The notes below the pieces were generated by a model that was not told the DNA's origin, made no database searches, and saw only the letters and a program-made list of their open reading frames with translations. A stretch of 64,000 nt of DNA from Escherichia coli (lineage in GTDB: Bacteria > Pseudomonadota > Gammaproteobacteria > Enterobacterales > Enterobacteriaceae): NCBI RefSeq assembly GCF_024700885.2, contig NZ_CP117016.1. One strand, 5' to 3'. Below are positions 3,001 to 32,922 of this stretch, one piece after another. A program made the position numbers and the translations under genes. Each line of letters opens with the position of its first letter. Within the stretch, counting starts at the first letter, position 1.

Positions 3001-6000
3001 GCGCCCATGCGCTGGCCTGCGGCTACCTGGACGGGCTGGCCCAGCAGTTTTCCACCCTTGATGCGCCGAAAACGCTCTCTGTCGCCTGGGGCGCATGGGG
3101 AGAAAGCGGTCGGGCGGCCACGCCGGAAATGCTGGCGACGCTCGCCAGCCGAGGTATGGGCGCGTTAAGCGATGCCGAAGGCTGCTGGCACCTGGAACAG
3201 GCGGTGATGCGCGGCGCCCCGTGGCGACTGGCGATGCGCGTTTTTACCGACAAAATGCCCCCGTTACAACAGGCTCTGTTTAACATCAGCGCCACAGAAA
3301 AAGCCGCAACGCCGGTCATTCCTCCTGCTGATGACAACGCCTTTAACGGCAGCCTGAGCGATGAAACAGCGGTGATGGCATGGCTGAAAAAGCGGATTGC
3401 GGTTCAGCTAAGGCTGAGCGATCCGGCGTCACTGCATCCAAACCAGGATCTGTTGCAACTCGGCATGGACTCGCTGCTCTTCCTTGAACTCAGTAGCGAT
3501 ATTCAGCACTACCTGGGTGTACGCATCAATGCGGAACGGGCGTGGCAGGATCTGTCTCCTCATGGACTCACGCAGCTTATCTGTTCTAAGCCAGAGGCGA
3601 CGCCTGCCGCTTCGCAGCCGGAAGTGTTGCGGCACGACGCCGACGAGCGTTATGCGCCCTTCCCTTTGACGCCCATTCAGCACGCCTACTGGCTGGGGCG
3701 AACCCACCTCATTGGCTATGGCGGCGTCGCCTGTCACGTCCTGTTTGAGTGGGATAAACGCCACGATGAGTTCGATCTCGCCATACTGGAGAAAGCATGG
3801 AACCAGCTCATCGCACGCCACGATATGTTGCGTATGGTGGTTGATGCCGACGGGCAGCAGCGAATCCTGGCGACAACGCCGGAGTATCACATCCCGCGTG
3901 ACGATCTGCGCGCGCTTTCCCCGGAAGAACAGCGCATCGCGCTGGAAAAACGGCGGCATGAACTGAGCTATCGCGTTTTGCCTGCCGACCAGTGGCCTCT
4001 TTTTGAGCTGGTGGTCAGCGAAATCGACGATTGCCATTACCGTCTGCATATGAACCTCGACCTTTTGCAGTTTGATGTGCAGAGTTTTAAAGTCATGATG
4101 GACGACCTGGCGCAGGTCTGGCGCGGTGAAACGCTGGCACCGCTCGCTATTACCTTCCGTGATTATGTGATGGCTGAACAGGCGCGCCGACAGACATCGG
4201 CATGGCACGATGCCTGGGATTACTGGCAGGAAAAACTGCCGCAACTGCCCTTAGCGCCAGAGCTGCCGGTGGTTGAGACGCCCCCGGAAACGCCACACTT
4301 CACCACCTTCAAATCGACGATCGGCAAGACAGAATGGCAGGCCGTGAAACAGCGCTGGCAGCAGCAAGGCGTCACACCGTCTGCCGCGCTGCTCACGCTG
4401 TTTGCCGCCACCCTTGAGCGCTGGAGCCGTACCACAACATTTACGCTGAACCTGACGTTCTTCAATCGCCAGCCGATCCATCCGCAAATCAACCAGTTGA
4501 TTGGTGATTTTACCTCCGTCACGCTGGTTGATTTTAACTTCTCAGCGCCGGTGACGTTGCAAGAGCAGATGCAACAGACCCAACAGCGCCTCTGGCAAAA
4601 CATGGCGCACAGTGAAATGAACGGTGTTGAGGTGATCCGTGAGCTGGGCCGCCTGCGCGGATCACAACGTCAACCGCTGATGCCGGTAGTGTTTACCAGT
4701 ATGCTGGGGATGACGCTGGAAGGCATGACTATCGATCAGGCGATGAGCCATCTGTTCGGCGAACCCTGCTATGTATTCACGCAAACGCCGCAGGTCTGGC
4801 TGGATCATCAGGTCATGGAGAGTGACGGCGAGTTGATGTTTAGCTGGTACTGCATGGACAACGTGCTGGAACCCGGCGCTGCCGAGGCGATGTTTAATGA
4901 CTATTGCGCCATCCTGCAAGCCGTCATCGCCGCCCCTGAAAGCCTGAAGACTCTCGCCAGCGGCATCGCCAGGCACATTCCCCGCCGACGCTGGCCGCTG
5001 AACGCGCAGGCGGACTACGACCTGCGGGATATTGAGCAGGCGACGCTCGAATACCCCGGCATCCGGCAGGCCAGAGCGGAAATAACCGAACAGGGCGCGT
5101 TGACGCTGGATATCGTGATGGCCGACGATCCTTCGCCATCAGCGGCGATGCCTGATGAGCACGAACTTACCCAACTGGCGCTGCCGTTGCCTGAGCAGGC
5201 GCAGCTTGATGAGCTGGAGGCGACCTGGCGCTGGCTGGAGGCGCGTGCGCTACAGGGGATCGCGGCTACGCTAAATCGTCACGGCCTGTTTACCACGCCG
5301 GAGATCGCCCATCGCTTTAGCGCAATAGTACAGGCGCTGTCCTCGCAAGCGTCTCACCAGCGTCTGCTGCGCCAGTGGCTACAGTGTCTGACGGAAAGAG
5401 AGTGGTTAATCCGCGAAGGTGAAAGCTGGCGCTGCCGCATTCCGCTCAGCGAGATTCCTGAGCCTCAGGAAGCGTGCCCGCAAAGCCAATGGAGCCAGGC
5501 GCTGGCGCAGTATCTGGAAACCTGCATCGCCCGGCACGACGCCCTCTTCTCCGGGCAGTGTTCTCCGCTGGAATTGCTGTTCAACGAGCAGCATCGCGTT
5601 ACCGACGCGCTGTATCGCGACAACCCCGCCAGCACCTGTCTGAATCGCTATACCGCGCAGATTGCCGCCTTGTGCAGCGCAGAACGGATTCTGGAGGTTG
5701 GCGCCGGAACCGCAGCCACTACCGCGCCGGTGCTGAAGGCCACGCGGAACACGCGACAGTCGTACCACTTCACGGACGTCTCCGCGCAGTTCCTCAATGA
5801 CGCCAGAGCCCGTTTCCATGATGAATCGCAGGTGTCTTATGCCTTGTTCGACATCAACCAGCCGCTGGATTTCACCGCCCACCCGGAGGCGGGTTACGAC
5901 CTGATCGTTGCCGTCAATGTGCTCCACGACGCCAGCCATGTCGTCCAGACGTTGCGCAGATTAAAACTGTTGCTGAAAGCCGGCGGACGTTTGCTGATCG

Positions 6001-7406
6001 TTGAAGCGACGGAGCGAAACAGCGTATTCCAGCTGGCGAGCGTGGGCTTTATTGAGGGATTAAGCGGATACCGCGATTTCCGCCGCCGGGATGAGAAACC
6101 GATGCTCACCCGCTCCGCATGGCAGGAGGTTCTCGTTCAGGCCGGGTTTGCAAACGAGCTGGCGTGGCCCGCGCAGGAATCGTCGCCGCTGCGCCAGCAT
6201 CTGCTGGTAGCGCGTTCGCCTGGCGTAAATCGCCCGGATAAAAAAGCCGTGAGCCGCTATTTACAGCAGCGCTTTGGCACCGGTCTGCCCATTTTACAGA
6301 TCCGGCAAAGAGAAGCGTTATTTACGCCGCTGCATGCCCCGTCTGATGCGCCGACTGAGCCAGCCAAACCCACGCCAGTTGCCGGGGGGAATCCGGCACT
6401 GGAAAAACAGGTGGCTGAACTCTGGCAATCGCTGCTGTCTCGCCCCGTGGCAAGGCATCACGACTTTTTCGAACTGGGCGGCGACAGCCTGATGGCGACA
6501 AGGATGGTCGCGCAGCTAAACCGGAGAGGGATTGCCAGGGCTAACCTTCAGGATCTGTTCAGCCATTCGACGCTGAGCGACTTCTGCGCCCATCTACAGG
6601 CGGCTACGTCAGGAGAGGACAACCCGATACCCCTTTGCCAGGGCGACGGTGAGGAAACCCTGTTTGTCTTCCACGCTTCAGACGGCGATATCAGCGCCTG
6701 GCTGCCGCTCGCTAGCGCGTTGAACAGGCGCGTTTTCGGCCTGCAAGCAAAATCGCCGCAGCGCCTTGCCACGCTCGACCAGATGATCGATGAGTATGTC
6801 GGGTGCATCCGTCGTCAGCAGCCTCACGGCCCTTATGTGCTGGCGGGTTGGTCGTATGGCGCGTTTCTTGCGGCGGGCGCCGCACAACGCCTGTACGCCA
6901 AAGGCGAGCAGGTTCGGATGGTGTTAATCGATCCCGTGTGCCGACAGGATTTCTGTTGCGAAAACCGGGCGGCCCTGCTGCGCCTGTTAGCCGAAGGACA
7001 AACGCCTCTGGCACTGCCCGAACATTTCGACCAGCAGACGCCCGACAGCCAGCTTGCCGACTTTATTAGCCTCGCTAAAACGGCCGGTATGGTGTCGCAA
7101 AACCTGACGCTGCAAGCGGCAGAAACGTGGCTCGACAACATCGCGCATCTGCTGCGTTTACTGACTGAGCATACGCCGGGCGAAAGCGTTCCGGTCCCCT
7201 GTCTCATGGTGTATGCCGCCGGGAGACCCGCGCACTGGACGCCAGCAGAAACCGAGTGGCAGGGCTGGATAAACAACGCCGACGACGCTGTGATTGAAGC
7301 CAGCCACTGGCAAATCATGATGGAAGCCCCCCACGTTCAGGCTTGTGCGCAACACATTACGCGCTGGCTTTGCGCAACCTCAACGCAACCGGAGAACACG
7401 TTATGA
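1..7406 (+). CDS. irp1: Yersiniabactin PKS/NRPS HMWP1, 5'-truncated at window edge (reading frame opens at nt 3; ORF-track Met at 288 is internal)
   Basis: Frame 3 is open from nt 3 to the stop at 7404-7406. Translation shows an acyltransferase motif (GAAHSALLEP), two SAM-methyltransferase motifs (LEVGGGTGG near 1195; LEVGAGTAA near 5695), a KR Rossmann motif (VTGAFGGLGR near 2600), carrier-protein serines (LGMDSLL near 3465; GGDSLMA near 6485), a cyclization-type D-rich motif near 4060 and a thioesterase GWSYG near 6850. Gene order matches the HPI. Confidence 0.9.
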   Translation, partial: LDLAANNGTQHTVFSGPEARLAVFCATLSQHDINYRRLSVTGAAHSALLEPILDRFLDTCAGLHAEPGQIPIISTLTADVIDESTLNQADYWRRHMRQPVRFIQSIQVAHQLGARVFLEMGPDAQLVACGQREYRDNAYWIASARRNKEASDVLNQALLQLYAAGVALPWADLLAGDGQRIAAPCYPFDTERYWKERVSPACEPADAALSAGLEVASRAATALDLPRLEALKQCATRLHAIYVDQLVQRCTGDAIENGVDAMTIMRRGRLLPRYQQLLQRLLNNCVVDGDYRCTDGRYVRARPIEHQQRESLLTELAGYCEGFQAIPDTIARAGDRLYEMMSGAEEPVAIIFPQSASDGVEVLYQEFSFGRYFNQIAAGVLRGIVQTRQPRQPLRILEVGGGTGGTTAWLLPELNGVPALEYHFTDISALFTRRAQQKFADYDFVKYSELDLEKEAQSQGFQAQSYDLIVAANVIHATRHIGRTLDNLRPLLKPGGRLLMREITQPMRLFDFVFGPLVLPLQDLDAREGELFLTTAQWQQQCRHAGFSKVAWLPQDGSPNAGMSEHIILATLPGQAVSAVTFTAPSEPVLGQALTDNGDYLADWSDCAGQPEQFNARWQEAWRLLSQRHGDALPVEPPPVAAPEWLGKVRLSWQNEAFSRGQMRVEARHPAGEWLPLSPAAPLPAPQTHYQWRWTPLNVASIDHPLTFSFSAGTLARSDELAQYDIIHDPHASSRLMIVEESEDTLALAEKVIAALTASAAGLIVVTRRAWRVEENEALSASHHALWALLRVAANEQPERLLAAIDLAENTPWETLHQGLSAVSLSQRWLAARGDTLWLPSLSPNTGCAAELPANVFTGDSRWHLVTGAFGGLGRLAVNWLREKGARRIALLAPRVDESWLRDVEGGQTRVCRCDVGDAGQLATVLDDLAANGGIAGAIHAAGVLADAPLQELDDHQLAAVFAVKAQAASQLLQTLRNHDGRYLILYSSAAATLGAPGQSAHALACGYLDGLAQQFSTLDAPKTLSVAWGAWGESGRAATPEMLATLASRGMGALSDAEGCWHLEQAVMRGAPWRLAMRVFTDKMPPLQQALFNISATEKAATPVIPPADDNAFNGSLSDETAVMAWLKKRIAVQLRLSDPASLHPNQDLLQLGMDSLLFLELSSDIQHYLGVRINAERAWQDLSPHGLTQLICSKPEATPAASQPEVLRHDADERYAPFPLTPIQHAYWLGRTHLIGYGGVACHVLFEWDKRHDEFDLAILEKAWNQLIARHDMLRMVVDADGQQRILATTPEYHIPRDDLRALSPEEQRIALEKRRHELSYRVLPADQWPLFELVVSEIDDCHYRLHMNLDLLQFDVQSFKVMMDDLAQVWRGETLAPLAITFRDYVMAEQARRQTSAWHDAWDYWQEKLPQLPLAPELPVVETPPETPHFTTFKSTIGKTEWQAVKQRWQQQGVTPSAALLTLFAATLERWSRTTTFTLNLTFFNRQPIHPQINQLIGDFTSVTLVDFNFSAPVTLQEQMQQTQQRLWQNMAHSEMNGVEVIRELGRLRGSQRQPLMPVVFTSMLGMTLEGMTIDQAMSHLFGEPCYVFTQTPQVWLDHQVMESDGELMFSWYCMDNVLEPGAAEAMFNDYCAILQAVIAAPESLKTLASGIARHIPRRRWPLNAQADYDLRDIEQATLEYPGIRQARAEITEQGALTLDIVMADDPSPSAAMPDEHELTQLALPLPEQAQLDELEATWRWLEARALQGIAATLNRHGLFTTPEIAHRFSAIVQALSSQASHQRLLRQWLQCLTEREWLIREGESWRCRIPLSEIPEPQEACPQSQWSQALAQYLETCIARHDALFSGQCSPLELLFNEQHRVTDALYRDNPASTCLNRYTAQIAALCSAERILEVGAGTAATTAPVLKATRNTRQSYHFTDVSAQFLNDARARFHDESQVSYALFDINQPLDFTAHPEAGYDLIVAVNVLHDASHVVQTLRRLKLLLKAGGRLLIVEATERNSVFQLASVGFIEGLSGYRDFRRRDEKPMLTRSAWQEVLVQAGFANELAWPAQESSPLRQHLLVARSPGVNRPDKKAVSRYLQQRFGTGLPILQIRQREALFTPLHAPSDAPTEPAKPTPVAGGNPALEKQVAELWQSLLSRPVARHHDFFELGGDSLMATRMVAQLNRRGIARANLQDLFSHSTLSDFCAHLQAATSGEDNPIPLCQGDGEETLFVFHASDGDISAWLPLASALNRRVFGLQAKSPQRLATLDQMIDEYVGCIRRQQPHGPYVLAGWSYGAFLAAGAAQRLYAKGEQVRMVLIDPVCRQDFCCENRAALLRLLAEGQTPLALPEHFDQQTPDSQLADFISLAKTAGMVSQNLTLQAAETWLDNIAHLLRLLTEHTPGESVPVPCLMVYAAGRPAHWTPAETEWQGWINNADDAVIEASHWQIMMEAPHVQACAQHITRWLCATSTQPENTL

Positions 7407-8503
7407 TGCCGTCCGCCTCCCCAAAACAACGCGTACTGATTGTGGGCGCCAAATTTGGCGAAATGTACCTGAATGCCTTTATGCAGCCCCCGGAGGGGCT
7501 GGAACTGGTCGGCCTGCTGGCGCAGGGAAGCGCCCGTTCAAGAGAGCTGGCTCATGCGTTTGGCATTCCGCTGTATACCTCGCCGGAACAGATAACCAGG
7601 ATGCCGGATATCGCCTGTATTGTCGTGCGTTCGACCGTCGCCGGAGGAACCGGTACGCAGCTTGCCAGACACTTTCTGACGCGCGGCGTACACGTCATTC
7701 AGGAGCATCCCCTCCACCCGGATGACATCAGTTCCTTACAAACGCTGGCGCAGGAACAGGGCTGCTGCTATTGGGTAAACACGTTTTATCCGCATACGCG
7801 CGCGGGACGCACATGGCTTCGCGATGCGCAGCAGCTGCGTCGCTGTCTGGCTAAGACGCCGCAGGTGGTCCACGCCACCACCAGCCGACAGTTGCTCTAC
7901 TCCACTCTGGATTTGTTGTTGCTGGCTCTGGGCGTTGATGCCGTCGCCGTGGAGTGCGACGTGGTTGGCAGCTTTAGCGATTTTCACTGTCTGAGACTCT
8001 TCTGGCCGGAGGGAGAAGCCTGCCTGCTGCTTCAGCGCTATCTCGATCCTGACGATCCAGATATGCATAGCCTTATCATGCACCGCCTGCTGCTGGGCTG
8101 GCCGGAAGGTCATCTTTCGCTGGAGGCGAGCTACGGCCCCGTCATCTGGTCATCCAGCCTGTTTGTCGCAGACCATCAGGAGAACGCCCACAGCCTCTAC
8201 CGCAGACCGGAGATCCTGCGCGATCTGCCGGGTCTGACGCGCAGCGCGGCGCCCCTGAGCTGGCGCGACTGCTGCGAAACCGTCGGGCCGGAGGGCGTCA
8301 GCTGGTTGCTACACCAGTTGCGCAGCCATCTGGCGGGCGAACATCCACCAGCGGCCTGCCAAAGCGTACATCAGATCGCGTTATCACGTTTATGGCAGCA
8401 GATTTTACGTAAGACCGGCAATGCGGAGATCAGACGCCTGACGCCGCCGCACCACGACCGGTTAGCCGGTTTCTACAACGATGATGATAAGGAGGCGCTG
8501 TGA
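7403..8503 (+). CDS. ybtU: Thiazolinyl imide reductase (yersiniabactin biosynthesis)
   Basis: 366-aa product starting MMPSASPKQRVLIVGAKFG; the ATG overlaps the irp1 stop (ATGA) and its own stop overlaps the ybtT GTG start. Position between irp1 and ybtT is conserved. Confidence 0.85.
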   Translation: MMPSASPKQRVLIVGAKFGEMYLNAFMQPPEGLELVGLLAQGSARSRELAHAFGIPLYTSPEQITRMPDIACIVVRSTVAGGTGTQLARHFLTRGVHVIQEHPLHPDDISSLQTLAQEQGCCYWVNTFYPHTRAGRTWLRDAQQLRRCLAKTPQVVHATTSRQLLYSTLDLLLLALGVDAVAVECDVVGSFSDFHCLRLFWPEGEACLLLQRYLDPDDPDMHSLIMHRLLLGWPEGHLSLEASYGPVIWSSSLFVADHQENAHSLYRRPEILRDLPGLTRSAAPLSWRDCCETVGPEGVSWLLHQLRSHLAGEHPPAACQSVHQIALSRLWQQILRKTGNAEIRRLTPPHHDRLAGFYNDDDKEAL

Positions 8504-9303
8504 CGCAATCTGCAATGTGCATACCGCTGTGGCCCGCCCGGAACGGCAATACTGCGCATCTGGTCATGTGCCCTTTCGCTGGCGGCAGCAGTAGCGCGTT
8601 TCGCCACTGGCAAGCTGAGCAACTGGCTGATTGCGCGCTTTCTCTGGTGACCTGGCCGGGGCGCGATCGCCTTCGCCATCTGGAACCGCTCAGAAGCATT
8701 ACACAACTGGCGGCACTGCTGGCGAACGAGCTGGAAGCATCCGTATCGCCTGACACGCCGCTTTTACTCGCCGGGCACAGCATGGGGGCGCAGGTGGCGT
8801 TTGAAACCTGCCGACTTCTGGAGCAACGGGGGCTTGCGCCACAAGGACTGATTATTTCCGGGTGCCATGCCCCGCATCTGCATTCTGAACGCCAGCTCAG
8901 CCATCGCGATGATGCCGACTTTATCGCTGAGCTGATAGACATTGGCGGATGTTCTCCTGAACTGCGGGAAAACCAGGAATTAATGTCGCTGTTTCTTCCT
9001 CTTCTGCGCGCTGATTTTTACGCCACCGAGAGCTATCACTACGACTCGCCCGACGTCTGTCCGCCGCTGCGCACGCCTGCGCTGTTATTGTGCGGCAGCC
9101 ACGATCGCGAAGCCTCCTGGCAGCAGGTCGATGCCTGGCGTCAGTGGCTGAGCCACGTTACAGGCCCGGTGGTGATTGACGGCGATCATTTCTATCCCAT
9201 TCAACAAGCCCGGTCCTTTTTTACGCAGATTGTCCGCCATTTTCCCCACGCATTTTCTGCAATGACCGCGTTGCAAAAACAGCCCAGTACTTCAGAAAGG
9301 TGA
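8500..9303 (+). CDS. ybtT: Type II thioesterase (yersiniabactin editing)
   Basis: 267 aa with an alpha/beta-hydrolase GHSMG motif; GTG start overlaps the ybtU stop. Confidence 0.85.
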   Translation: MTQSAMCIPLWPARNGNTAHLVMCPFAGGSSSAFRHWQAEQLADCALSLVTWPGRDRLRHLEPLRSITQLAALLANELEASVSPDTPLLLAGHSMGAQVAFETCRLLEQRGLAPQGLIISGCHAPHLHSERQLSHRDDADFIAELIDIGGCSPELRENQELMSLFLPLLRADFYATESYHYDSPDVCPPLRTPALLLCGSHDREASWQQVDAWRQWLSHVTGPVVIDGDHFYPIQQARSFFTQIVRHFPHAFSAMTALQKQPSTSER

Positions 9304-22233: not shown

Positions 22234-22334
22234 GGTAAACTCCGGGCAGTTCAGATTTTCCGTTATTGTTAAAGTCTAATGCCCGGCATAACAAATAATA
22301 AAAACCCGCATCTTATTCCATCCCGATATAACGC

Positions 22335-23252
22335 TTAGCTCACCAATTGCCACTGCCTTTTTTCCATCACTGGAGAACTCATCACTGACATTAACAACTC
22401 TTTCACTGCCTGTGCCTGTGGTGATAAGTTCGCTCTGGCGGGTAAATTTAATGACAAAGAGAGACTCATGGAAGGTGTGGTAATGCGTGACATCCACCCG
22501 TTTACTGCGCCACATAACGAACGCGCGGCCGATTCGGGTAATACTGCAACGCCCATGCCGCTGGCAATCGCTGCGGTAAGCGTGGCAATAGACTCAATTT
22601 CACCAATGACTTTTGCCGTGAGTCGCCGTAGGGAAAAAGCCTCATCAACACGAAGTCTAACAGCACTGTAATCACTGGGAAGAAAGAGGTTCATTTGCGC
22701 AATAGCATTAACATCAACGCTTTGCCCCGGACAATCTTGAGTCCCTACCAGGAAAAGATCTTCTTTCAGTAAAGCCTGACTGGATACACCAGCCACAGGG
22801 GAATGCTCATAAATCACCGCCATATCGAGTTGGTGATTTATCAGTTTTTCGTTAAGCACTGCACCACTATTTTCATGAAGATAGATAACGACCTCCGGGA
22901 ATTCAGCGCGAACCGCCTGTAATAAGGGCATGGTGATGGATGACGCAGCGGTTCCTGGCGCAAAGCCAATCGAGACTTGCCCCGATAATGACTGACCAAC
23001 GTTATGCACCGCCAGTTGGGCCTGCTCACACTGACGTAAAATGGCCCGCGCATGGGTATAGAGAATTTTTCCGGCGTCTGTTGGCGTAACGCCCCGTTTT
23101 GTGCGAATCAAAAGTTGTTGATTTAACTCACCTTCCAGTGTGGCAACCTGCTGGCTGAGCGCTGGTTGTGCGATATGCAATACTTCAGCAGCCTGAGTCA
23201 GGCTACCAATATCTACAATTTTTACGAAGTATTTCAGGCGTCTGAAGTTCAT
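22335..23252 (-). CDS. nac: Nitrogen assimilation control protein (LysR family)
   Basis: 305 aa from MNFRRLKYFVKIVDIGSLTQAAE; a sigma-54 promoter lies upstream. Confidence 0.85.
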   Translation of the reverse strand: MNFRRLKYFVKIVDIGSLTQAAEVLHIAQPALSQQVATLEGELNQQLLIRTKRGVTPTDAGKILYTHARAILRQCEQAQLAVHNVGQSLSGQVSIGFAPGTAASSITMPLLQAVRAEFPEVVIYLHENSGAVLNEKLINHQLDMAVIYEHSPVAGVSSQALLKEDLFLVGTQDCPGQSVDVNAIAQMNLFLPSDYSAVRLRVDEAFSLRRLTAKVIGEIESIATLTAAIASGMGVAVLPESAARSLCGAVNGWMSRITTPSMSLSLSLNLPARANLSPQAQAVKELLMSVMSSPVMEKRQWQLVS

Positions 23253-23307
23253 GTTGCCTCCGGTTTTTGAGAATCGGCCCAAGTGCCGCCATTACTTACA
23301 ACCAGAC

Positions 23308-23324
23308 TGCAAGATGCTTGCCAG
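23308..23324 (-). promoter_or_regulatory. Sigma-54 (-24/-12) promoter of nac
   Basis: Minus strand reads TGGCAA-gcatc-TTGCA with canonical GG/GC spacing, about 55 nt upstream of the nac start. Confidence 0.5.
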
Positions 23325-23577
23325 TTTTATTTTGGCGTTGATGTACAAGCTAACCAACTGTCAAATAAGAGATTATGATAGATTCGTCATTGGCTCTTTT
23401 CACCAGCAGTCGCGTTCCCCTGCCCTATAAAAGGAGGGTATGCACCACGATGGTTCATTACCAATAAGATTGAAATCTCATCACTTTGTTGAAATTGACA
23501 GCAAACAAACAAAAAAATGCATTTCACCCTTTGACATCACCATGCACTGCCATTAATATGCGCCCCGTTCACACGAT

Positions 23578-23653
23578 TCCTCTGTAGTTCAGTCGGTAGA
23601 ACGGCGGACTGTTAATCCGTATGTCACTGGTTCGAGTCCAGTCAGAGGAGCCA
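23578..23653 (+). tRNA. asnV: tRNA-Asn
   Basis: Identical 76-nt tRNA-Asn sequence. Confidence 0.95.
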
Positions 23654-23658
23654 AATTC

Positions 23659-23688
23659 AAAAAAGCCTGCTTTCTAGCAGGCTTTTTG
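23659..23688 (+). terminator. Rho-independent terminator after asnV
   Basis: aaaaagcctgc-tttcta-gcaggcttttt. Confidence 0.6.
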
Positions 23689-23708
23689 CTTTCTAATTAC
23701 CAACGCTC

Positions 23709-24641
23709 TTAAAACATCTGTCTTGAACCAGAACTAATTTGCACAGGCATTCCCGATCGACGTTGCAACGCAGCATTTGCGCGATTCACATCAACTTCTT
23801 GCCCGTTGATAAACGCCCGCAAAGATGGGGTTACCGGCAATGGCACTTTTCGGTCAGACTCATATTCTGCACGATTGCGCGACAGCGGCTCATGAACTTC
23901 CAGCCAGTTCGAGCCATCTGGTTCAGTGGTGTATTTTACTGGCTGGTCGATAATTTGCACACGCGTTCCAACAGGAACATTATCAAACAGATATTTGATA
24001 TCGTCATTGCGCAGACGAATACAGCCCTGACTTACCCGAAGTCCAATACCAAAATTGGCATTGGTACCGTGGATGGCATACAACCTGCCAATATAAATCG
24101 CGTACAGCCCCATGGGATTATCGGGCCCCGCAGGAACAAATGCGGGCAAACTCTCCCCTCGTTTCGCATATTCGCGCCGAGTGTTCGGCGTTGGCGTCCA
24201 GGTTGGAGCTTCTTGTTTACGTTCAACGGTAGTCACCCAGTTACGCGGGGTTTCTCGCCCAGCCTGGCCGATACCAATAGGAAAGACTTCCACAGTATTA
24301 CTGTCTGGCGGGTAGTAATAAAGACGCATCTCAGCGACGTTAACCACAATCCCTTTACGAACAGTGGCGGGCAAAATCAGTTGCTGCGGAATGGTGAGTT
24401 GCGAGCCAGACTTCGGCAAGAAAACATCAGCGCCCGGATTCGCTTCCAGCATGTTACTTAACCCTTGCCCGTATTGTGCGGCAAAAGTCTCCAGCGGCTG
24501 GGTATTGTGATCAGGAACAGTTACAGTAAGCGACTGCCCCACCAAACGGCTACCCTCTGGAGGTAATGGATAAGTTACCGCCAGGCTAGTATGGCTGGCA
24601 AAAAGCAGAGCAAATGAGCAAAGAATATTTACACGACGCAT
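23709..24641 (-). CDS. ldtA: L,D-transpeptidase (YkuD domain)
   Basis: 310 aa from [15 protein letters not shown] (signal peptide); catalytic HGT…GCIRL motif. Confidence 0.8.
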
Positions 24642-24705
24642 CATGTCCCTTTCCTATGTCGCGAAAGCTATCCGTTAAGTATAGCTTTTATCAGACTTTT
24701 CGTTT

Positions 24706-25785
24706 TTAACTGTTCAAATCAGAAGTCGTATTCCCCGGTAGAACAATATTACTGGCAGCAAGTTCGCCCATGTTGTTATATATCGCACAGGCAGCTTCGA
24801 TGATGGGCATCGCCAGAGCTGCGCCACTCCCCTCACCTAAACGCATCTCCATATTGAGATAAGGCTCCAGCCCCAAATGCGACAGCGCTATACGCGCCCC
24901 TTTTTCTGCCGACAGGTGAGAAGGAATGAGATACGGTTTGATTGCAGGAGACATCTGGCAGGCTGCGAGCGCAGCAGCATAAGAAAGAAATCCATCCAGC
25001 AACACGGGTAAACCGCAGGAAGCAGCGCCTAACATCACGCCAGCCATTCCGACCAAATCAAATCCCCCCACTTTTGCCAGAACATCAACGCCATCCTGCG
25101 GATTTGGTTGATTCAACGTAATCGCCCGGCGCACAACATCAATTTTATTAGCCAGTTTATCTGTCGGCAGGTTTGCGCCAATCCCAACCACTTCTTCAGG
25201 ATCCCGGCCAGTGATTGTGCTGACTATTGCCGCTGCCGGTGTCGTGTTTGCCATCCCCAGTTCACCTACACCAAACAGCGTGACACCGTTTTTTGCCAGC
25301 TCCCGCGTATAACATATGACGTCCAAAAGCAACTTTTCAGCCTGACGGCGACTCATTGCCGGAGCTGAAGCAATATTGCCGCTACCTCGTGCGACACGCA
25401 TGTTGATAAGCCCGGGGATAGGCTCAGCACTATCAATACCAACATCAACTACGTGGACGTTAGCGCCCGCTTGTGCTGCCAGCACACACACGCCGGTTGT
25501 TCCGCGGGTCATATTTTCAGCCTGAATGGCTGTCACTTCTTTTGGGGAAATAGCGACCCCTTCCTCCCAGACGCCGTGATCGGCACACATAACCAGTACC
25601 GCTTTTTTGCCCACATGCGGTATGCCATTCAACCCCGGCATTCCCGCCAGTTGTATGGCAAGCGCCTCCAGCCTTCCCAGGCTACCAACAGGTTTGAGTA
25701 ACCCGTCAATATGCCGTTGTGCACGCGACATAGCGGCAGGATCGATAGCAGGGATCGTATTCAGTAAATCGGCAAGTGTTTGCAT
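24706..25785 (-). CDS. cobT: Nicotinate-nucleotide–dimethylbenzimidazole phosphoribosyltransferase
   Basis: 359 aa; conserved cobU-cobS-cobT operon. Confidence 0.9.
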
Positions 25786-25796
25786 GTCACGTCTCT

Positions 25797-26540
25797 TTAT
25801 AGCAGTGCCAGCAGGAAGACCAGTTCACCAAGCTCTATAGCAGCTCCCAGCGTATCGCCGGTTTGCCCGCCCAGCGTACGTTTGAGAAGCTGACCGAGGA
25901 TGAAAATCGCCACCATCGTCACCACCATAGCAGCCACACCATGCATACCCGGCAATAATACGGCAGCAAAAATAGCGGCTAAGCCGAGTGTGACGCAGGT
26001 TTGTCGCCCATCAATTTTGCCAATGAACACATTGCCAAGCCCTTCTTCCCGGGCATAACGATGACGATACATCAATAATGCGGCAGTCCCGCGGCTGACC
26101 GCACATGCTGCCGCCAGCGATGCAAGGATCGGTTCGCCACGCAGAGCCAACTCGCTTAATACCAGAATCTTTGCCAGTACAACAAAAATCAATGCCAGAC
26201 CGCCATGGGTGCCTAAACGGCTATCACGCATGATTTCCAACATGCGATCGCGGCTACGTGCAGAAAATACGCCATCACAGGTATCGGCGAGGCCGTCTAG
26301 GTGGAATCCCCCGGTCATCAGCGCCAGCACAAGTACGCTAAACAGTGCCGCCAGTGGTACGCCACACCATGCCTGCAGCACCATGAAGACCAGCCCGCTA
26401 ATCGCGCCAAGCAATAATCCAATTAAAGGAAAAGTAATAATACCGCGAGAATAATGCTCGAAATCCAGTCCCTGGGACCAGCGACGCAGTACAGGCAGAC
26501 GCGTAATAAATGAGAGCATCGCCCAAAATAATTTACTCAT
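25797..26540 (-). CDS. cobS: Cobalamin (5'-phosphate) synthase
   Basis: 247 aa from MSKLFWAML; membrane protein; start overlaps the cobU stop. Confidence 0.85.
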
Positions 26541-27082
26541 TTGATTTTTACTCCAATACCCGAAACCACCAGCCATACTTCATTTGCCGCAGCGGCCAGC
26601 TGCTGATTTACCCGCCCGGCAATATCACGAAAATGTCGTGCCAGACGACTCTCCGGCACAATCCCCATTCCCACTTCGTTAGTCACTAATACAACCTTTG
26701 CGGGGCAACGTTGGCAGGCAGCAATCAACGACTGAATCTCAGCATTAATCGCCTGTTCCATCGCCTGATAATCCCATTCATCAGGGTCTTTATCGCCGCC
26801 ATAATCAAACAACAGATTAGTCACCATTGTGGTAACGCATTCCAGCAACACAGCTTCATGCGGGTTAATGTCTGCATAAATTAATTCATCAAGATGTTGC
26901 CAACGCTCCACCGTGCGCCAGTGCGCCGGACGGCCTTGCCGATGATGTTCTATCCGTGCAGCCATCTCGCCATCAAGGATTTGCGAGGTGGCGATATACA
27001 GAACCTGTGAAGAGTCCCCAATAAGCGCCTCTGCGTGGCGACTCTTCCCGCTCCGTGCGCCCCCCGTCACCAAAATCATCAT
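26537..27082 (-). CDS. cobU: Adenosylcobinamide kinase / adenosylcobinamide-phosphate guanylyltransferase
   Basis: 181 aa with P-loop GGARSGKS. Confidence 0.9.
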
Positions 27083-28570
27083 ACCGACTCCTGATTCAAT
27101 TGTATGATGGTATTCATTGAACAGAACAATGGATCCCCCACCATTGCTGACCGCAAAACATTTACACGATCAATACTGCGCGTAATATAATTAAAAATCC
27201 AGCATTCTCAATCCATTACGAAAGAAGATGGCATTGTGGAATAGCCAGACTTCCTCGTGTTAACGTCCGACAAAATGCGTCATTGACAGCGGTTTCTGTG
27301 GATTGACACATTTCATTCAGATAATGAATTAATGCTACTGCCGGACCAACCAGCAAACGGGCATTGTGTTCTGAAATCCAGGCTATTGATTCAACGTCAG
27401 CGACAGATCTGCGCTGTAAAAGAACTTGTAAAACAACGCAATAGAATTATCCGGAATGGTGGCGACTATGCACTAGAACACCACAATTTCGCTCTCTCGG
27501 TAAGGCACTGTCACAGCATTCAACAGAATGTGACTTGCCAGATTTATTAGCGCCACCAGATGTTTAACCGGGTAACCACGACCCAGTCGGGGATATATTC
27601 CATCTTCTCGCTGACATCATCAAGAATAAAAAGGTTTATCACACTCAGAGCAACGTTCTTCAGCAGGCGGGATAATTCTTCAACATTTAAAAGATGTGTT
27701 ATTAAAGGCATACAAACTGGACGTATTGTATTTTCTTTTGGTGGTTGACCTAAGGTAGCAGTTTATCCTGATGCGCTGAGATTTCTGTAATATCTACGTC
27801 AACATTCTCCTCGAATAGAAAATGCAGCCTCGGCAAGTGATTCACATTTTTTAACAAAACGTTGTTAGCGTGCCATTTTCAGAAGCTCTCCAAGAAAGCG
27901 AATTCTTTTCTCAAATTCTGCATTCTCAGACACAGCTTTCTACTCCATGGCAATGGCCCAAATACGAAGTTGCTCAGGATCATTAGTGGTGCTGAGAAGT
28001 TAAATAACCATGCGGAGTACCACTCGTCATCACGTATTTATATATCATGAAGCTATTGTTGTGTTTTGTACATCAGTAGATGTATTCTGATATACTCCTT
28101 TTGCTAGACATAACCTTTCACCTGCTTGCAAAGCTTCTGTGTTCTGACATTGCCAAATTGTTGCAATTCTGTATCCAGCCTTCTTTCAGTCATAGCTTCG
28201 GGCCGCGATAAGACTCACTGATCTGACCCTGATTCCTCTTGCAGACTTTATAGACCAATTAAAATGCAGTTTCTGCAGGTCAACGTCTGACCATCATTGT
28301 CATCACTCTGGCCATTAGAGTAACCTTCTGCATTCATCCTTTTGTAAAAAGTTTATGTCAGTATCAGCAATTAACCGGACCTGATACTGATATGAGTCTT
28401 ACCGCATATACGGTCAATTTCAGCAATTAATTACATTATCCACGCCAAAGTGTTTGTCATCGCAATGATGGTACCTTCTTTCAGACACCATTTTTTCAAC
28501 TCCGTTTTCCACGGACCGCACTCTTATGTCAAGAGTGCGGTGATCCTACCCACGTAATATGGACACAGGC

Positions 28571-29393
28571 CTAAGCGAGGTTCTTGTTTTCAAATTGTTC
28601 CGGACTGAGGCCGCCACACCAACTGTGCCGCCGCCACCGATTGTAATCACATTCGATATAATTAAACACCGTTGCCCGCATTATTTCCCGGCTGATAAAG
28701 TGTTCTCCATGGATACATTCCACTTTCAGCGAATGAAAGAAGCTTTCCACGCAGATTATGCCGCTTCAGTTGCGCCTGATAATCTGCTGAACAGTACTGG
28801 CCTCCACGGTCCGTGTGAACGATAACGTTCCGGGGCCTCTTACGCCGCCATAGCGCCATCTGCAGGGCATCGCAGGCCAGTTGCGCCGTCATGCGTGGCG
28901 ACATTGACCAGCCAATAACGGCACGTGACCACAGGTCAATGACCACTGCCAGATACAGCCAGCCTTCATCTGTACGTAAGTACGTGATGTCTCCTGCCCA
29001 CTTCTGGTTCGGGCCACTGGCGTAAAAATCCTGCTCCAACAGATTTTCTGACACAGGCAGGCCGTGTGCGCGGTAGCTGACCGGGCTGAACTTCCGGGAG
29101 GCCTTTGCCCTCAGTCCCTGACGGCGCAGGCTTGCCGCCACGGTTTTTACGTTAAAGGGGTAACCCTGAGCACGCAGTTCATCCGTCAGGCGTGGGGCAC
29201 CGTAACGCTGTTTTGACCGGGTAAAAGCCGCGAGGACAACGCTGTCGCAGTGTTGGCGGAACTGCTGACGCGTGCTTATCCTTGTCCGCCGCTGACACCA
29301 CGTATACCAGCCGCTGCGGGCCACCCGGAGCACGCGGCACATTGCTTTGATGCTGAACTCAGCCTGATGTTTTTCAATAAAGACATACTTCAT
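28571..29393 (-). pseudogene. insF: IS3 OrfB transposase disrupted by an internal out-of-frame deletion
   Basis: Translation matches InsF up to …KRHNLRG, then about 13 residues are missing and the remaining C-terminus ([18 protein letters not shown]…ENKNLA) continues in another frame. Confidence 0.8.
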
Positions 29394-29689
29394 TTCAGGC
29401 GCTTCGCGAAGTATGTCGCGGCCTTTTGGAGGATAGCCAGCTCTTCATCCCGTTCTGCCAGCTGGCGTTTGAGACGTGCAATCTCGGTAGACATCTCCAG
29501 TTCACGTTCAGAAGACGTCTGCTGATTTTGCTGTTTACTGCGCCAGTTGTAGAGCTGTGATTCATACAGGCTGAGTTCACGGGCTGCGGCAGTAACACCG
29601 ATGCGTTCAGCAAGCTTCAGGGCTTCACTGCGAAATTCAGGCGAATGCTGTTTACGGGGTTTTTTACTGGTTGATACTGTTTTTGTCAT
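29390..29689 (-). CDS. insE: IS3 OrfA transposase subunit
   Basis: 99 aa starting [25 protein letters not shown]. Confidence 0.85.
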
Positions 29690-29775
29690 GTGAGTCACCT
29701 CTGACTGAGAGTTTACTCACTTAGCCGCGTGTCCACTATTGCTGGGTAAGATCACCTTATTGCTGCGCTGATAAT

Positions 29776-30606
29776 ATGGACCGCAAACCTATTGAAGATG
29801 TGATCTTCGAAATTAATAACTTTATCTCGCTCGGTGGTCGCACCATTGTTGATGCCACAGGGTCTGAGTCTATCGGACGAGATGCGCAGGCATTACGAGA
29901 AGTCGCATTAAAAACAGGTCTGAATATTGTTGCTTCCTCCGGTCCCTACCTGGAAAAATTTGAAAGCCAGAGAATTCATAAAACGGTTGATGAACTGGCG
30001 GCAACGATTGATAAAGAATTGAATCAAGGGATTGGCGATACGGATATTCGTGCCGGAATGATCGGTGAAATAGGTGTCTCACCGACATTTACCGAAGCCG
30101 AGCATAACAGCTTGCGGGCTGCCTCGCTGGCACAGATTAACAATCCTCATGTGGCGATGAATATTCACATGCCGGGCTGGCTTCGTCGCGGTGATGAAGT
30201 ACTCGACATTGTGTTAGGTGAAATGGGCGTCTCGCCAAATAAAGTCTCTCTCGCACACTCGGATCCGTCAGGAAAAGACGTGGCGTATCAGCGGAAAATG
30301 CTTGATAAGGGTGTCTGGCTGGAATTCGACATGATTGGCCTAGACATTACCTTCCCGAAAGAGGGAATAGCGCCAGGGGTGCAGGAGACTGCCGATGCCG
30401 TCGCTCATCTCATTGAGTTGGGATACGCCGATCAGCTTGTTCTCAGCCACGATGTCTTCCTTAAACAAATGTGGGCTAAAAATGGCGGTAATGGCTGGGG
30501 ATTTGTTCCAGATGTTTTTCTGGCCTATCTGGCGGAGCGCGGCGTCGATAAAACGATCCTCAAAAAACTCTGTATCGATAATCCCGGACGATTATTGACC
30601 GCATAA
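29776..30606 (+). CDS. Phosphotriesterase-related protein (amidohydrolase fold), probably N-terminally truncated by the IS3 insertion
   Basis: 276 aa with php/yhfV-like fold motifs; the reading frame is open back to the IS3 end at 29755 and lacks the N-terminal HxH metal-binding motif. Confidence 0.6.
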   Translation: MDRKPIEDVIFEINNFISLGGRTIVDATGSESIGRDAQALREVALKTGLNIVASSGPYLEKFESQRIHKTVDELAATIDKELNQGIGDTDIRAGMIGEIGVSPTFTEAEHNSLRAASLAQINNPHVAMNIHMPGWLRRGDEVLDIVLGEMGVSPNKVSLAHSDPSGKDVAYQRKMLDKGVWLEFDMIGLDITFPKEGIAPGVQETADAVAHLIELGYADQLVLSHDVFLKQMWAKNGGNGWGFVPDVFLAYLAERGVDKTILKKLCIDNPGRLLTA

Positions 30607-30613
30607 AACCATT

Positions 30614-30639
30614 ATCCCCCGGCACACTGCGCCGGGGGA
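30614..30639. terminator. Bidirectional hairpin terminator
   Basis: tcccccggc-acactgc-gccggggga between convergent ORFs. Confidence 0.5.
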
Positions 30640-30646
30640 TGTCAAT

Positions 30647-30990
30647 TAATACCCCGCCGTTAAATCATCCACCAAGCGCGAGTCGGATGCGCCGTACAAC
30701 TCACCATCCGACCCAACCATAATGCTTTGCGTGCTGCCCATCGCCTCATTCAGCGCCACTTTCTGACCTTTTGCTTCCAGCAGCTTGAGCGTATCCGGAC
30801 TAAACCCTTTTCAACACGCAGCTCGTCCGGCAACCACTGATGGTGGAAACGAGGCGCATTGGTCGCTTCGGCAACATTCATTCCACAATTGATGCTGTTC
30901 ACCACCATTTGCAGCACGGTAGTGATGATTCAGCTACCGGTAACAAAGTGAGTACATAAAGGCCATACTGTCACGAACAGTGCAAAAGTG
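30647..30990 (-). pseudogene. ggt: Gamma-glutamyltranspeptidase C-terminal fragment with frameshift and nonsense lesions
   Basis: Minus-strand translation …SIMVGSDGELYGASDSRLVDDLTAGY* and, in a shifted frame, …IITTVLQMVVNSINCGMNVAEATNAPRFHHQWLPDELRVEKG, matching the GGT small-subunit C-terminus. Confidence 0.6.
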
Positions 30991-31029
30991 GCTCTTCCGC
31001 AACCTAGGTGAAGATTTTCATGCCAGTGG

Positions 31030-32650
31030 ACTCATTACCCTCCGCCTAAGTAGTTCAAATCCGGCTCGACCATACATCTGGCGTATCAGCACCTTCAGGC
31101 GATTTACATGACCTTCGACAACACCATTACTCCAGCGACTGCTGATTGCCTCACATATAGCCGCAGCATCAGCTTCCATCCCCGCAGCTACGCACCGAAG
31201 TTCTGCTGAGCCGCTTTCGTGGACTCGAGTGAACCAGCTGCTTAGCTGTGATTTATTTTAGGTTTTCAGAATACGGTAGAACTCGAGTACCAGTTGCTGT
31301 GCTATTTTCAACTCCGGTTCTTTTTCACACATCAGACTAATAAATCGGGATGCATAATTTTCTTCGCCCCTGATTATTCTCCAGGGCATCAACCAGCGGC
31401 TTACCCGGAACACTGAAGGAAGTCTTGCGGCAGTAGTAACCGGTGGGTTCCAGCCTTTACGCCATTTGGCAACAGTATCCCTGACGATGGTTTCACTGCC
31501 TGTCCCCCCCCCTGGGCCACCATTTCCCGCCATATCCGGCTGGCATTATAATTACCACTTTCTCGTTGCTCTTTTAACCACTCCCTCCATGGGTCCAGAA
31601 GCCCTCGCTTTGGAGGCCGGGTTGACATTTCAGGGAATGTTCCTGAACGCACCCAGCGACTGACTGTCACTCGCGACAGGCCTGTAATACGGGATATTTC
31701 CCTGAAACTACATCCCTTGTTATGCAGGGCCATAACCTCTGTCCAATGCTGATGCCGTTTTTTGCGGGTTTGCTGTTTAAGGCGTTCCGGACGACGGAGC
31801 GATGCTACAGGCACAGATATTTCTGGCTCAGGTGATTTCTTCAGTGATAACTCTCTGACAACAAGACGTATCAGAGGCATATGTCTGTACATCATTCGTT
31901 CAGGCTCATCACCAATATTTTTTAGCAGGTGCCATCGATCGGCCACCTGTCTGGCCTGAGGTGCACCTTCACGTGCTGCTGTCGCATAGACTCCACTGCG
32001 ATCACGCGAGACAACCTGTATTTCCGGATATTTTCTGAACCAGGTCGCCAGCGTACGCTGATCACGGCCGGGAAGCAGGACGAGGGGACGGTGAGTATCA
32101 AGATTGACTATTAACATACCGCAGCAGTGGCCCCGATGCCACGCCCACTCATCAATACCGACATGAGGCGCGCCTGACTGTTTCGTCTCCGGGGTATTGA
32201 TAACCCTGCGAAGAAGAGTATCAGCACTGCAACGGAGACCCGCTGCCGTTGCAGCCCGTTTTCCAGCCTCACCTCCAGCTATTAATCCCAGTTGACGTTG
32301 TAAATTTTGTAACGCCTGTGAAGACTGTTGGTGTGAACCGGCGAAGGGAGCAAGCGACTCGGCAAAAATTTTACGTGAACAAGCTGGGTTACGGCAGTAC
32401 CAGTGGCGGACGGAAAATACAAGCCATAGCGTCTGTCCTGATCAGGGTAGATGCTGTATCCGGCGCCGACAACAACTATGAACAGAGTCGCTACGCTTAA
32501 AGCATTCAGGACATTGTGCTGTTTTGCGTTTTCCGTGGAGATGGAGGGTTATACCGTCAGAGCTAATAATTTGTCGACTGCATCGCCATCCGCAAGGTAA
32601 CTGTAGAAGTGTCTTAAGAGAGTGCATTGGGTTGCCCATAACTTAAAACA
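31030..32650 (-). pseudogene. ISL3-family transposase remnant (multiple frameshifts)
   Basis: Minus-strand fragments: zinc-finger N-terminus (CPECFKRSDSVHSCCRRR, 32442-32639), central region (VVSRDRSGVYATAAREGAPQARQVADRWHLLKN, 31401-32117) and C-terminus (SNGVVEGHVNRLKVLIRQMYGRAGFEL, about 31040-31130), split across three frames. Element boundaries are approximate. Confidence 0.55.
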
Positions 32651-32922
32651 GCTTAGATCCTTGTTCGCCAGAAAGTTTCATCCATTTTCTTCCACCCAGG
32701 TTGCGGAAGAACCACTTTTCATCCGTCGTTGACAGATGTGAAGTATGCGGGAGAAAAAGTGAATATCTAACTGTAATAACTCAGACCGGTACGAGTACTC
32801 GGGGCGTCTACAATCATTCAGGGCAAAGTGCTAAAATTTCTCTATCCCGGGATGCCCCTACCAACGCAGCACTCCCGGAGATATCATTACAGCTCTGCAA
32901 CTGATTTCCGCGACTGAACCGC

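Follow-up and report, generated by a model that had tools for sequence, protein, structure and literature searches.

Decayed mobile elements and a cobalamin gene remnant upstream of cobU at the left edge of a CP4-44-type island in Escherichia coli

What occupies the 1458 bp directly upstream of cobU on an Escherichia coli chromosome (27083-28540), where no intact gene is apparent? The region belongs to the window, that is, the whole 64-kb stretch of DNA analyzed (64,000 nucleotides), 82% of which is covered by ORFs of at least 100 aa; positions 27083-28661 (1579 bp) form its longest stretch free of such ORFs. The G+C content of the region is 40-42% versus approximately 50% in the flanks. Its longest ORF in any frame has 72 aa (27332-27550, plus strand), and 500 shuffles of the region gave a longest ORF of 77 +/- 19 aa, so the ORF content is that expected by chance. 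The first-pass annotation had reported only short ORFs in all frames and no intact gene, as is indeed the case. It had also described the translations as decayed coding sequence, and had named a lack of significant protein matches in every frame as the outcome that would speak against it; instead, four significant protein homologies were obtained: (i) an ORF that is a relic of cbiG, (ii) an IS4-family transposase, (iii) TnpC of the IS66 family, and (iv) the C-terminus of an IS110-family transposase. With stop codons replaced by X, a six-frame Pfam search revealed no domain in 27083-28540, and an Rfam search of the region at permissive thresholds gave no credible family. The short length of the fragments and their frameshifts explain the silence of Pfam; comparison with intact relatives was the sole approach that succeeded. 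The features are as follows (window positions; basis in brackets).

26537-27082, minus strand: cobU (ORF list)
27083-27215, minus strand: spacer from the stop of the cbiG relic to the cobU start codon, chromosomal backbone and not island (133 bp)
27184-27211, minus strand: predicted sigma-70 promoter of cobUST with -35 TTGAGA, a 16-nt spacer, and -10 TATATT (consensus scan)
27216-27389, minus strand: cbiG' remnant, the last 57 codons and stop of a 145-codon ORF (tblastn)
27378/27379, unstranded: left limit of the CP4-44-type island, where a deletion joined cbiG' to the IS4-family fragment (comparison with strain C5)
27386-27574, minus strand: piece from the interior of an IS4-family transposase (residues 166-228 of 445), interrupted once by an in-frame stop (tblastn); yeeH' (b4639) by K-12 translation
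27473-27476, unstranded: CTAG, the IS5H target site of K-12, duplicated in K-12 and unoccupied in the window (K-12 alignment)
27568-28011, minus strand: IS66-family TnpC relic covering codons 1-151 of 511 (tblastn); same sequence as yoeG' (b4640) by K-12 translation
28048-28107, minus strand: IS66 TnpB relic, the last 20 codons, residues 107-126 (tblastn, 55% over 20 aa, E 1e-4)
28110-28379, minus strand: decayed 3' non-coding end of an IS110-family element inserted in IS66 tnpB (alignment)
28380-28540, minus strand: IS110-family transposase relic, the last approximately 54 codons, with two in-frame stops (tblastn); same sequence as yoeH' (b4641) by K-12 translation
28541-29754, minus strand: defective IS3 of 1214 bp with a broken orfB (terminal repeats, ORF list)

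We conclude that 27083-28540 is, with little doubt, non-functional debris that lies across the point where the chromosomal backbone meets a CP4-44-type island. Every base is assigned to the promoter spacer, to the cbiG remnant, or to one of three truncated mobile elements; all relic pieces are read on the minus strand. None of the pieces contains an intact reading frame, terminal repeats, or a catalytic domain, and no protein product is expected from the debris. The earlier description of the region as a relic of past insertions is correct for 27379-28540 (approximately 80%, the IS4, IS66, and IS110 pieces) but not for the leftmost 296 bp, which are backbone.

The spacer next to cobU is colinear with the island-free strains C5 and Res13 at 93-99% identity, and in other Escherichia the same spacer of approximately 134 bp separates an intact 144-codon ORF from cobU (8435 to 8570 in locus L013). 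The TTGAGA-16-TATATT site at 27211-27184 (minus strand) was the top consensus match in the promoter scan (10/12), and a genomic SELEX study (PMC3946193) lists these hexamers as the constitutive RpoD promoter of cobUST. This promoter is the only element in the region with functional evidence and, located in the first approximately 130 bp, is likely the sole part of the region to act.

The adjacent remnant was recognized by comparison with the 145-aa protein P0005, residues 86-145 of which match 27389-27219 with 78% identity over 60 aa (tblastn, E 4e-26); relative to strain C5, the window copy has a 9-bp in-frame deletion. RefSeq labels 27216-27377 (minus strand) as 'cobalamin biosynthesis protein, missing N-terminus'. 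Five intact ORFs of 144/145 aa match positions 1-126 of 351 in the NCBIfam profile NF004463 for cobalt-precorrin-5A hydrolase (CbiG) (E 4e-19 to 2e-21). At 69-77 bits, the intact Escherichia ORF falls below the curated full-length cutoff of 546 bits, because it is a fragment, and thus does not qualify as a full-length CbiG. By this single NCBIfam profile, the 144/145-codon ORF is the predicted N-terminal third of CbiG; the family has no Pfam match, and a profile search of PDB sequences was empty. Thus, the 144-codon form itself lacks two-thirds of CbiG, whereas the window retains just 57 of its codons. An assignment of the remnant beside cobU to cbiP was our first assumption and was dropped, since the NCBIfam match is to the N-terminus of CbiG.

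With the longer cbiG' of C5, an island-free strain, as the query, matches were confined to Escherichia and Shigella; intact 144/145-aa ORFs were seen in E. albertii, E. marmotae, and other Escherichia. The gene order in other Escherichia is the pdu operon, pduF, pocR, a full cobalamin riboswitch, the cbiG' ORF, and cobUST. The riboswitch (RF00174) upstream of the intact cbiG' ORF scores 109 bits in L013, and no RF00174 match was found in 27083-28600 at E values up to 10. The comparison shows that the Escherichia lineage cut the cob operon down to the riboswitch, cbiG' (144 codons), and cobUST. A search of E. coli genomes for distant, Salmonella-like cbiP-cobU junctions returned none, and every match had an identity of 90% or more. 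A 1995 article by Lawrence and Roth in J Bacteriol reportedly deals with the E. coli cob genes.

The 144-codon ORF itself lies between the riboswitch and cobU in loci of other Escherichia species (L013 7608-8435 and L010 8001-8435) and is open in at least six divergent Escherichia lineages at 63-76% identity. Its pairwise dN/dS is 0.35 versus 0.025 for cobS and 0.065 for pocR. This ORF is relaxed but not neutral, and therefore may still be a gene outside E. coli.

The boundary of the island was determined from island-free strains. In strain C5, cobU is followed by a cbiG' of 119 aa, a C-terminal pduV fragment (Pfam PduV-EutP, E 2e-27), and tmaR. Positions 1-305 after cobU in C5 align to 27083-27378 of the window, where DNA homology ends, and in K-12 the homology to C5 restarts at 2078749, the very position annotated as the right end of CP4-44. 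These two endpoints show that island-free E. coli carry a cbiG'(119 aa)-pduV' scar, and that in most E. coli, the window and K-12 included, 280 bp of this scar has given way to the island, which abuts cbiG' at codon 86. The edge of the island is likewise shown to be a stack of nested, truncated mobile elements.

Two other strains have different arrangements at this locus. In strain Res13-Lact-ER01-35 (L008 5001-5360), cobU, 188 bp, and pduV' follow in series with no island; the right junction is 6 bp from the K-12 island end, a position that suggests loss of the island by deletion. In strain Ec-050-T5-ESBL (L009 5001-5900), an IS1 is found 140 bp from cobU, followed by intact genes for a DMT transporter and a phosphotriesterase-related protein.

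The outermost island piece, the IS4-family fragment, has 73% identity over 63 aa in a local tblastn search (E 6e-24) and 72-73% identity to matches in a 7.3-Gb plasmid collection (E about 1e-21 to 2e-22). The left portion corresponds to yeeH' of K-12, and the RefSeq label of the fragment is 'IS4 family transposase, internal stop, missing N- and C-terminus'. A complete DDE transposase with terminal inverted repeats of the IS4 family is absent, and both borders join unrelated relics. At the CTAG site, the K-12 alignment stops at 27476 and restarts at 27473, with the 1195-bp IS5H between. A separate observation concerns a GenBank record entitled 'Campylobacter phage B14' (MG065683.1, 2504 bp), the first 284 bp of which are 99.6% identical to window positions 27473-27756. 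This match, the only one in the phage collection, begins exactly at the K-12 IS5H insertion point, and the record probably contains E. coli K-12 DNA.

The second element belongs to the IS66 family. The TnpC relic shows 47% identity over 152 aa (tblastn, E 5e-23); its aligned frame is interrupted by five in-frame stops, and local frameshifts place homologous pieces in two other frames. At the DNA level, the relic is 71% identical to plasmid IS66 elements over approximately 570-577 bp (blastn, E 1e-71); the homology extends to about 28126, and the alignment to L005 and L006 is unbroken across the tnpB-tnpC junction, including the spacer. Both ends of the homology, at 27568 and at about 28110-28126, are internal breakpoints, and the terminal inverted repeats and target-site duplication of a complete IS66 element are absent; a repeat scan gave no matching terminal repeats. 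No TnpA match was found in the region (best E 2), and instead of intact tnpA, tnpB, and tnpC, homology is limited to TnpB residues 107-126 and TnpC residues 1-151. The sequence that the relic has in common with the intact IS66 element on plasmid pESBL3171-IncF (L006) covers the tnpB stop, the spacer between the two genes, and 151 codons at the start of tnpC; the relic differs from that element in the absence of tnpA, the larger part of tnpB, 70% of tnpC, and both ends, and in its stops and frameshifts.

The third element is of the IS110 family. Its transposase relic matches residues 282-337 of 339 with 50% identity over 56 aa (tblastn, E 2e-8); the N-terminal catalytic domain is absent, and IS3 replaces the remainder. 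The adjoining 28110-28379 segment is 68% identical to 3348-3643 of plasmid L004, within a 1.5-kb IS110-family insert, and aligns end to end with the approximately 270-nt 3' ends of four intact E. coli copies. Thus, the relic and the intact elements share the last 54 transposase codons and the whole 3' non-coding end, whereas the window copy lacks the catalytic N-terminal domain and the 5' end, and its fold is eroded. A consensus fold of 60 pairs, 10 of them compensated, is common to the four intact copies, which retain 57-60 pairs; the window copy, the fifth sequence compared, keeps 44 of 60. RefSeq names one relative 'IS110 family RNA-guided transposase'. From published work on the family, the 3' end would be the bridge/seek RNA region, and 28110-28379 is a decayed copy of what is probably this guide RNA region. 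An Rfam search with an intact relative gave no credible family.

IS110-family relatives were found within IS66-family elements three times, in independent arrangements at three positions: window 28110-28540 (3' end of tnpB), L004 3331-4825 (codon ~40 of tnpC), and L020 1799-3290 (middle of tnpB). The element in strain 21KM1392 is located within IS66 tnpB, and that of plasmid L004 within IS66 tnpC. These occurrences hint at a preference of the IS110-family relatives for IS66 sequences. The 3' ends of these relatives, 272 nt long, have the fold with 10 compensated pairs in common. Elsewhere in the window, a distant IS110-family transposase-like frame at 33672-34484 (plus strand) has 25% identity to the L004 protein over 317 positions (E 1.5e-6); it contains at least one stop and partly overlaps, on the opposite strand, a RefSeq 'inovirus Gp2 family protein' gene.

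The right end of the region at 28540, as given in the first-pass annotation, is exact, because the terminal repeat of IS3 (TGATCCTACCC) begins at 28541. This IS3, labeled by RefSeq as 'IS3 family transposase, frameshifted', is approximately 44 bp shorter than the canonical element of 1258 bp, and its orfB is split into two ORFs. Its flanks, CGG and CCT, show no target duplication; on one side of it is the IS110 relic and on the other a phosphotriesterase-related gene truncated at the N-terminus. K-12 lacks the IS3, and its homology ends at 28541. In place of the IS3, K-12 has a perfect palindrome, CCACGGACCGCACTCTT-atgtc-AAGAGTGCGGTCCGTGG, with a 17-bp stem and a 5-nt loop, followed by yoeA. 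This palindrome (L003 7390-7428, corresponding to window 28508-28540 plus lost sequence) is located where the IS110 transposase homology ends; the window IS3 cuts its right arm, and an inverted duplication or a hairpin may have left the palindrome as a scar. Beyond this point, 28542-41598 comprises approximately 13 kb of island absent from K-12, which includes the IS3, fragments of phosphotriesterase-related and gamma-glutamyltransferase genes, a broken ISL3, and zinc-ribbon genes; K-12 instead has yoeA interrupted by IS2. The two chromosomes match again from yeeP/flu onwards, and thus the window contains a CP4-44-type island with 13 kb of extra DNA. Since no sequence is shared with K-12 over the 13 kb past IS3, the IS3 is tied to a rearrangement and not to a simple insertion.

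Apart from IS5H, K-12 is colinear with the window over all 1458 bp at 98.8-99.3% identity. In the K-12 locus L003, 1-5159 corresponds to window 22319-27476 and 6355-7423 to 27473-28541, the latter at 99.25%. The island part is thereby closer to K-12 (99.25%) than the adjacent backbone (97.7%), which is explained more simply by a recent shared origin of the island than by constraint. The K-12 pseudogenes yeeH', yoeG', and yoeH', at the left edge of the CP4-44 cryptic prophage, are the nearest known counterpart: they occupy the orthologous position beside cobU in near-identical colinear DNA, and K-12 differs by IS5H at 27473-27476, by the absence of IS3, and by the palindrome and yoeA at the right. 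The region is 100% identical to that in E. coli 042 and many other strains; among complete E. coli genomes, 3445 of 5426 contain at least 80% of it and 5403 of 5426 at least a part. The statement that other strains carry IS elements and yoeA-type pseudogenes at this position agrees with IS5H in K-12 and IS1 in one strain, but yoeA of K-12 lies outside the region, 215 bp beyond its right end.

A rival reading is that the debris is retained because it acts in cis on cobUST, with internal promoters or H-NS binding that would set or insulate transcription at the island border. Genomic SELEX placed RpoD promoters before yoeG and yoeH, so that parts may be transcribed, and an H-NS site at yoeH; moreover, the relics share a strand with cobUST, have the low G+C content given above, and contain a promoter-like TGTACA/CATGAT site at 28045-28073. 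However, promoter-like sites in the region are at the level of shuffled sequence (3 found versus 3.9 expected), and K-12 tolerates the separation of the relics from cobU by a 1.2-kb IS5. Furthermore, strains C5, SE11, and Res13 and the IS1-truncated strain keep 140-305 bp upstream of cobU, including the promoter at 27184-27211, while the relics are wholly absent, which argues against a required cis role of the relics. We consider such a role improbable and not needed to explain the region; the debris is kept by descent and linkage, not by selection.

A still less probable reading is that the region hides a small gene or RNA, either the 54-aa ORF at 27547-27711 or an orphan guide RNA from 28110-28379. 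The ORF is annotated in some genomes as the RefSeq hypothetical protein WP_001128468.1, but it is merely the TnpC-homologous frame (the 'VSEKMEYIP..VVV' segment) between two stops. As for the RNA, the structured 3' end with covariation in intact IS110-family relatives contrasts with the loss of 16 of the 60 consensus pairs in the window copy, the own fold of which is no better than shuffles (z +0.6) and has no Rfam match; its cognate transposase is down to 54 codons with two stops. Equally remote is the related prospect that a transcript from the eroded IS110 3' end (28110-28379) or from the yoeG/yoeH promoters is still made, and would serve as an orphan guide RNA for IS110-family recombinases elsewhere or read through into cobUST. 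If true, a widely conserved 'pseudogene' stretch of E. coli would gain a regulatory role.

The proposal of a decayed yoeA-type TonB-dependent receptor or a cbiP remnant, prompted by K-12 yoeA beyond the right end and by cbiP, which we take to be the gene directly upstream of cobU in the Salmonella operon, can practically be discarded, since the remnant beside cobU matches the CbiG profile (positions 1-126) and not cobyric acid synthase, and 27379-28540 is wholly explained by IS4, IS66, and IS110 homology. The comparison with receptor and cbi-operon proteins that had been proposed as a check gave the cbi match described above and no receptor: the best tblastn match of K-12 YoeA in the region had an E value of 2.6, no plug-domain homology was found, and a YoeA relic was rejected.

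For the debris assigned to the three mobile elements, the junctions permit a tentative history. They connect internal positions to internal positions, namely, IS4 residue 228 to cbiG' codon 86 and IS4 residue 166 to TnpC residue 151, which points to deletions after nested insertions. From the junctions only, we infer the following order: (i) an IS110-family element would have inserted into tnpB of an IS66-family element, (ii) an IS4-family element would have inserted into tnpC of the same IS66 element at codon 151, (iii) deletions would have left the internal IS4 fragment, the piece with the 3' part of tnpB and the 5' part of tnpC, and the 3' end of the IS110-family element, (iv) point mutations and frameshifts would have built up, and (v) the strain-specific events would have come last, that is, IS3 at 28541 with a rearrangement in the window lineage and IS5 at CTAG 27473 in K-12.

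The region is ordinary and is already catalogued in K-12 (yeeH', yoeG', and yoeH' at the CP4-44 edge) and partly in RefSeq; the papers searched contain only incidental mentions of yoeG and yoeH. The significance of the analysis is therefore small beyond annotation: the cobU-proximal gap is fully explained, and a family can be named for each piece of 27575-28540, which RefSeq leaves unannotated in most genomes. The cbiG'-IS4 junction at 27378/27379 sets the left edge of the CP4-44-type island approximately 40 bp more precisely than the K-12 feature table and is mildly useful as a marker. The nested relics also preserve a record of how Escherichia lost the cbi/pdu cluster step by step.
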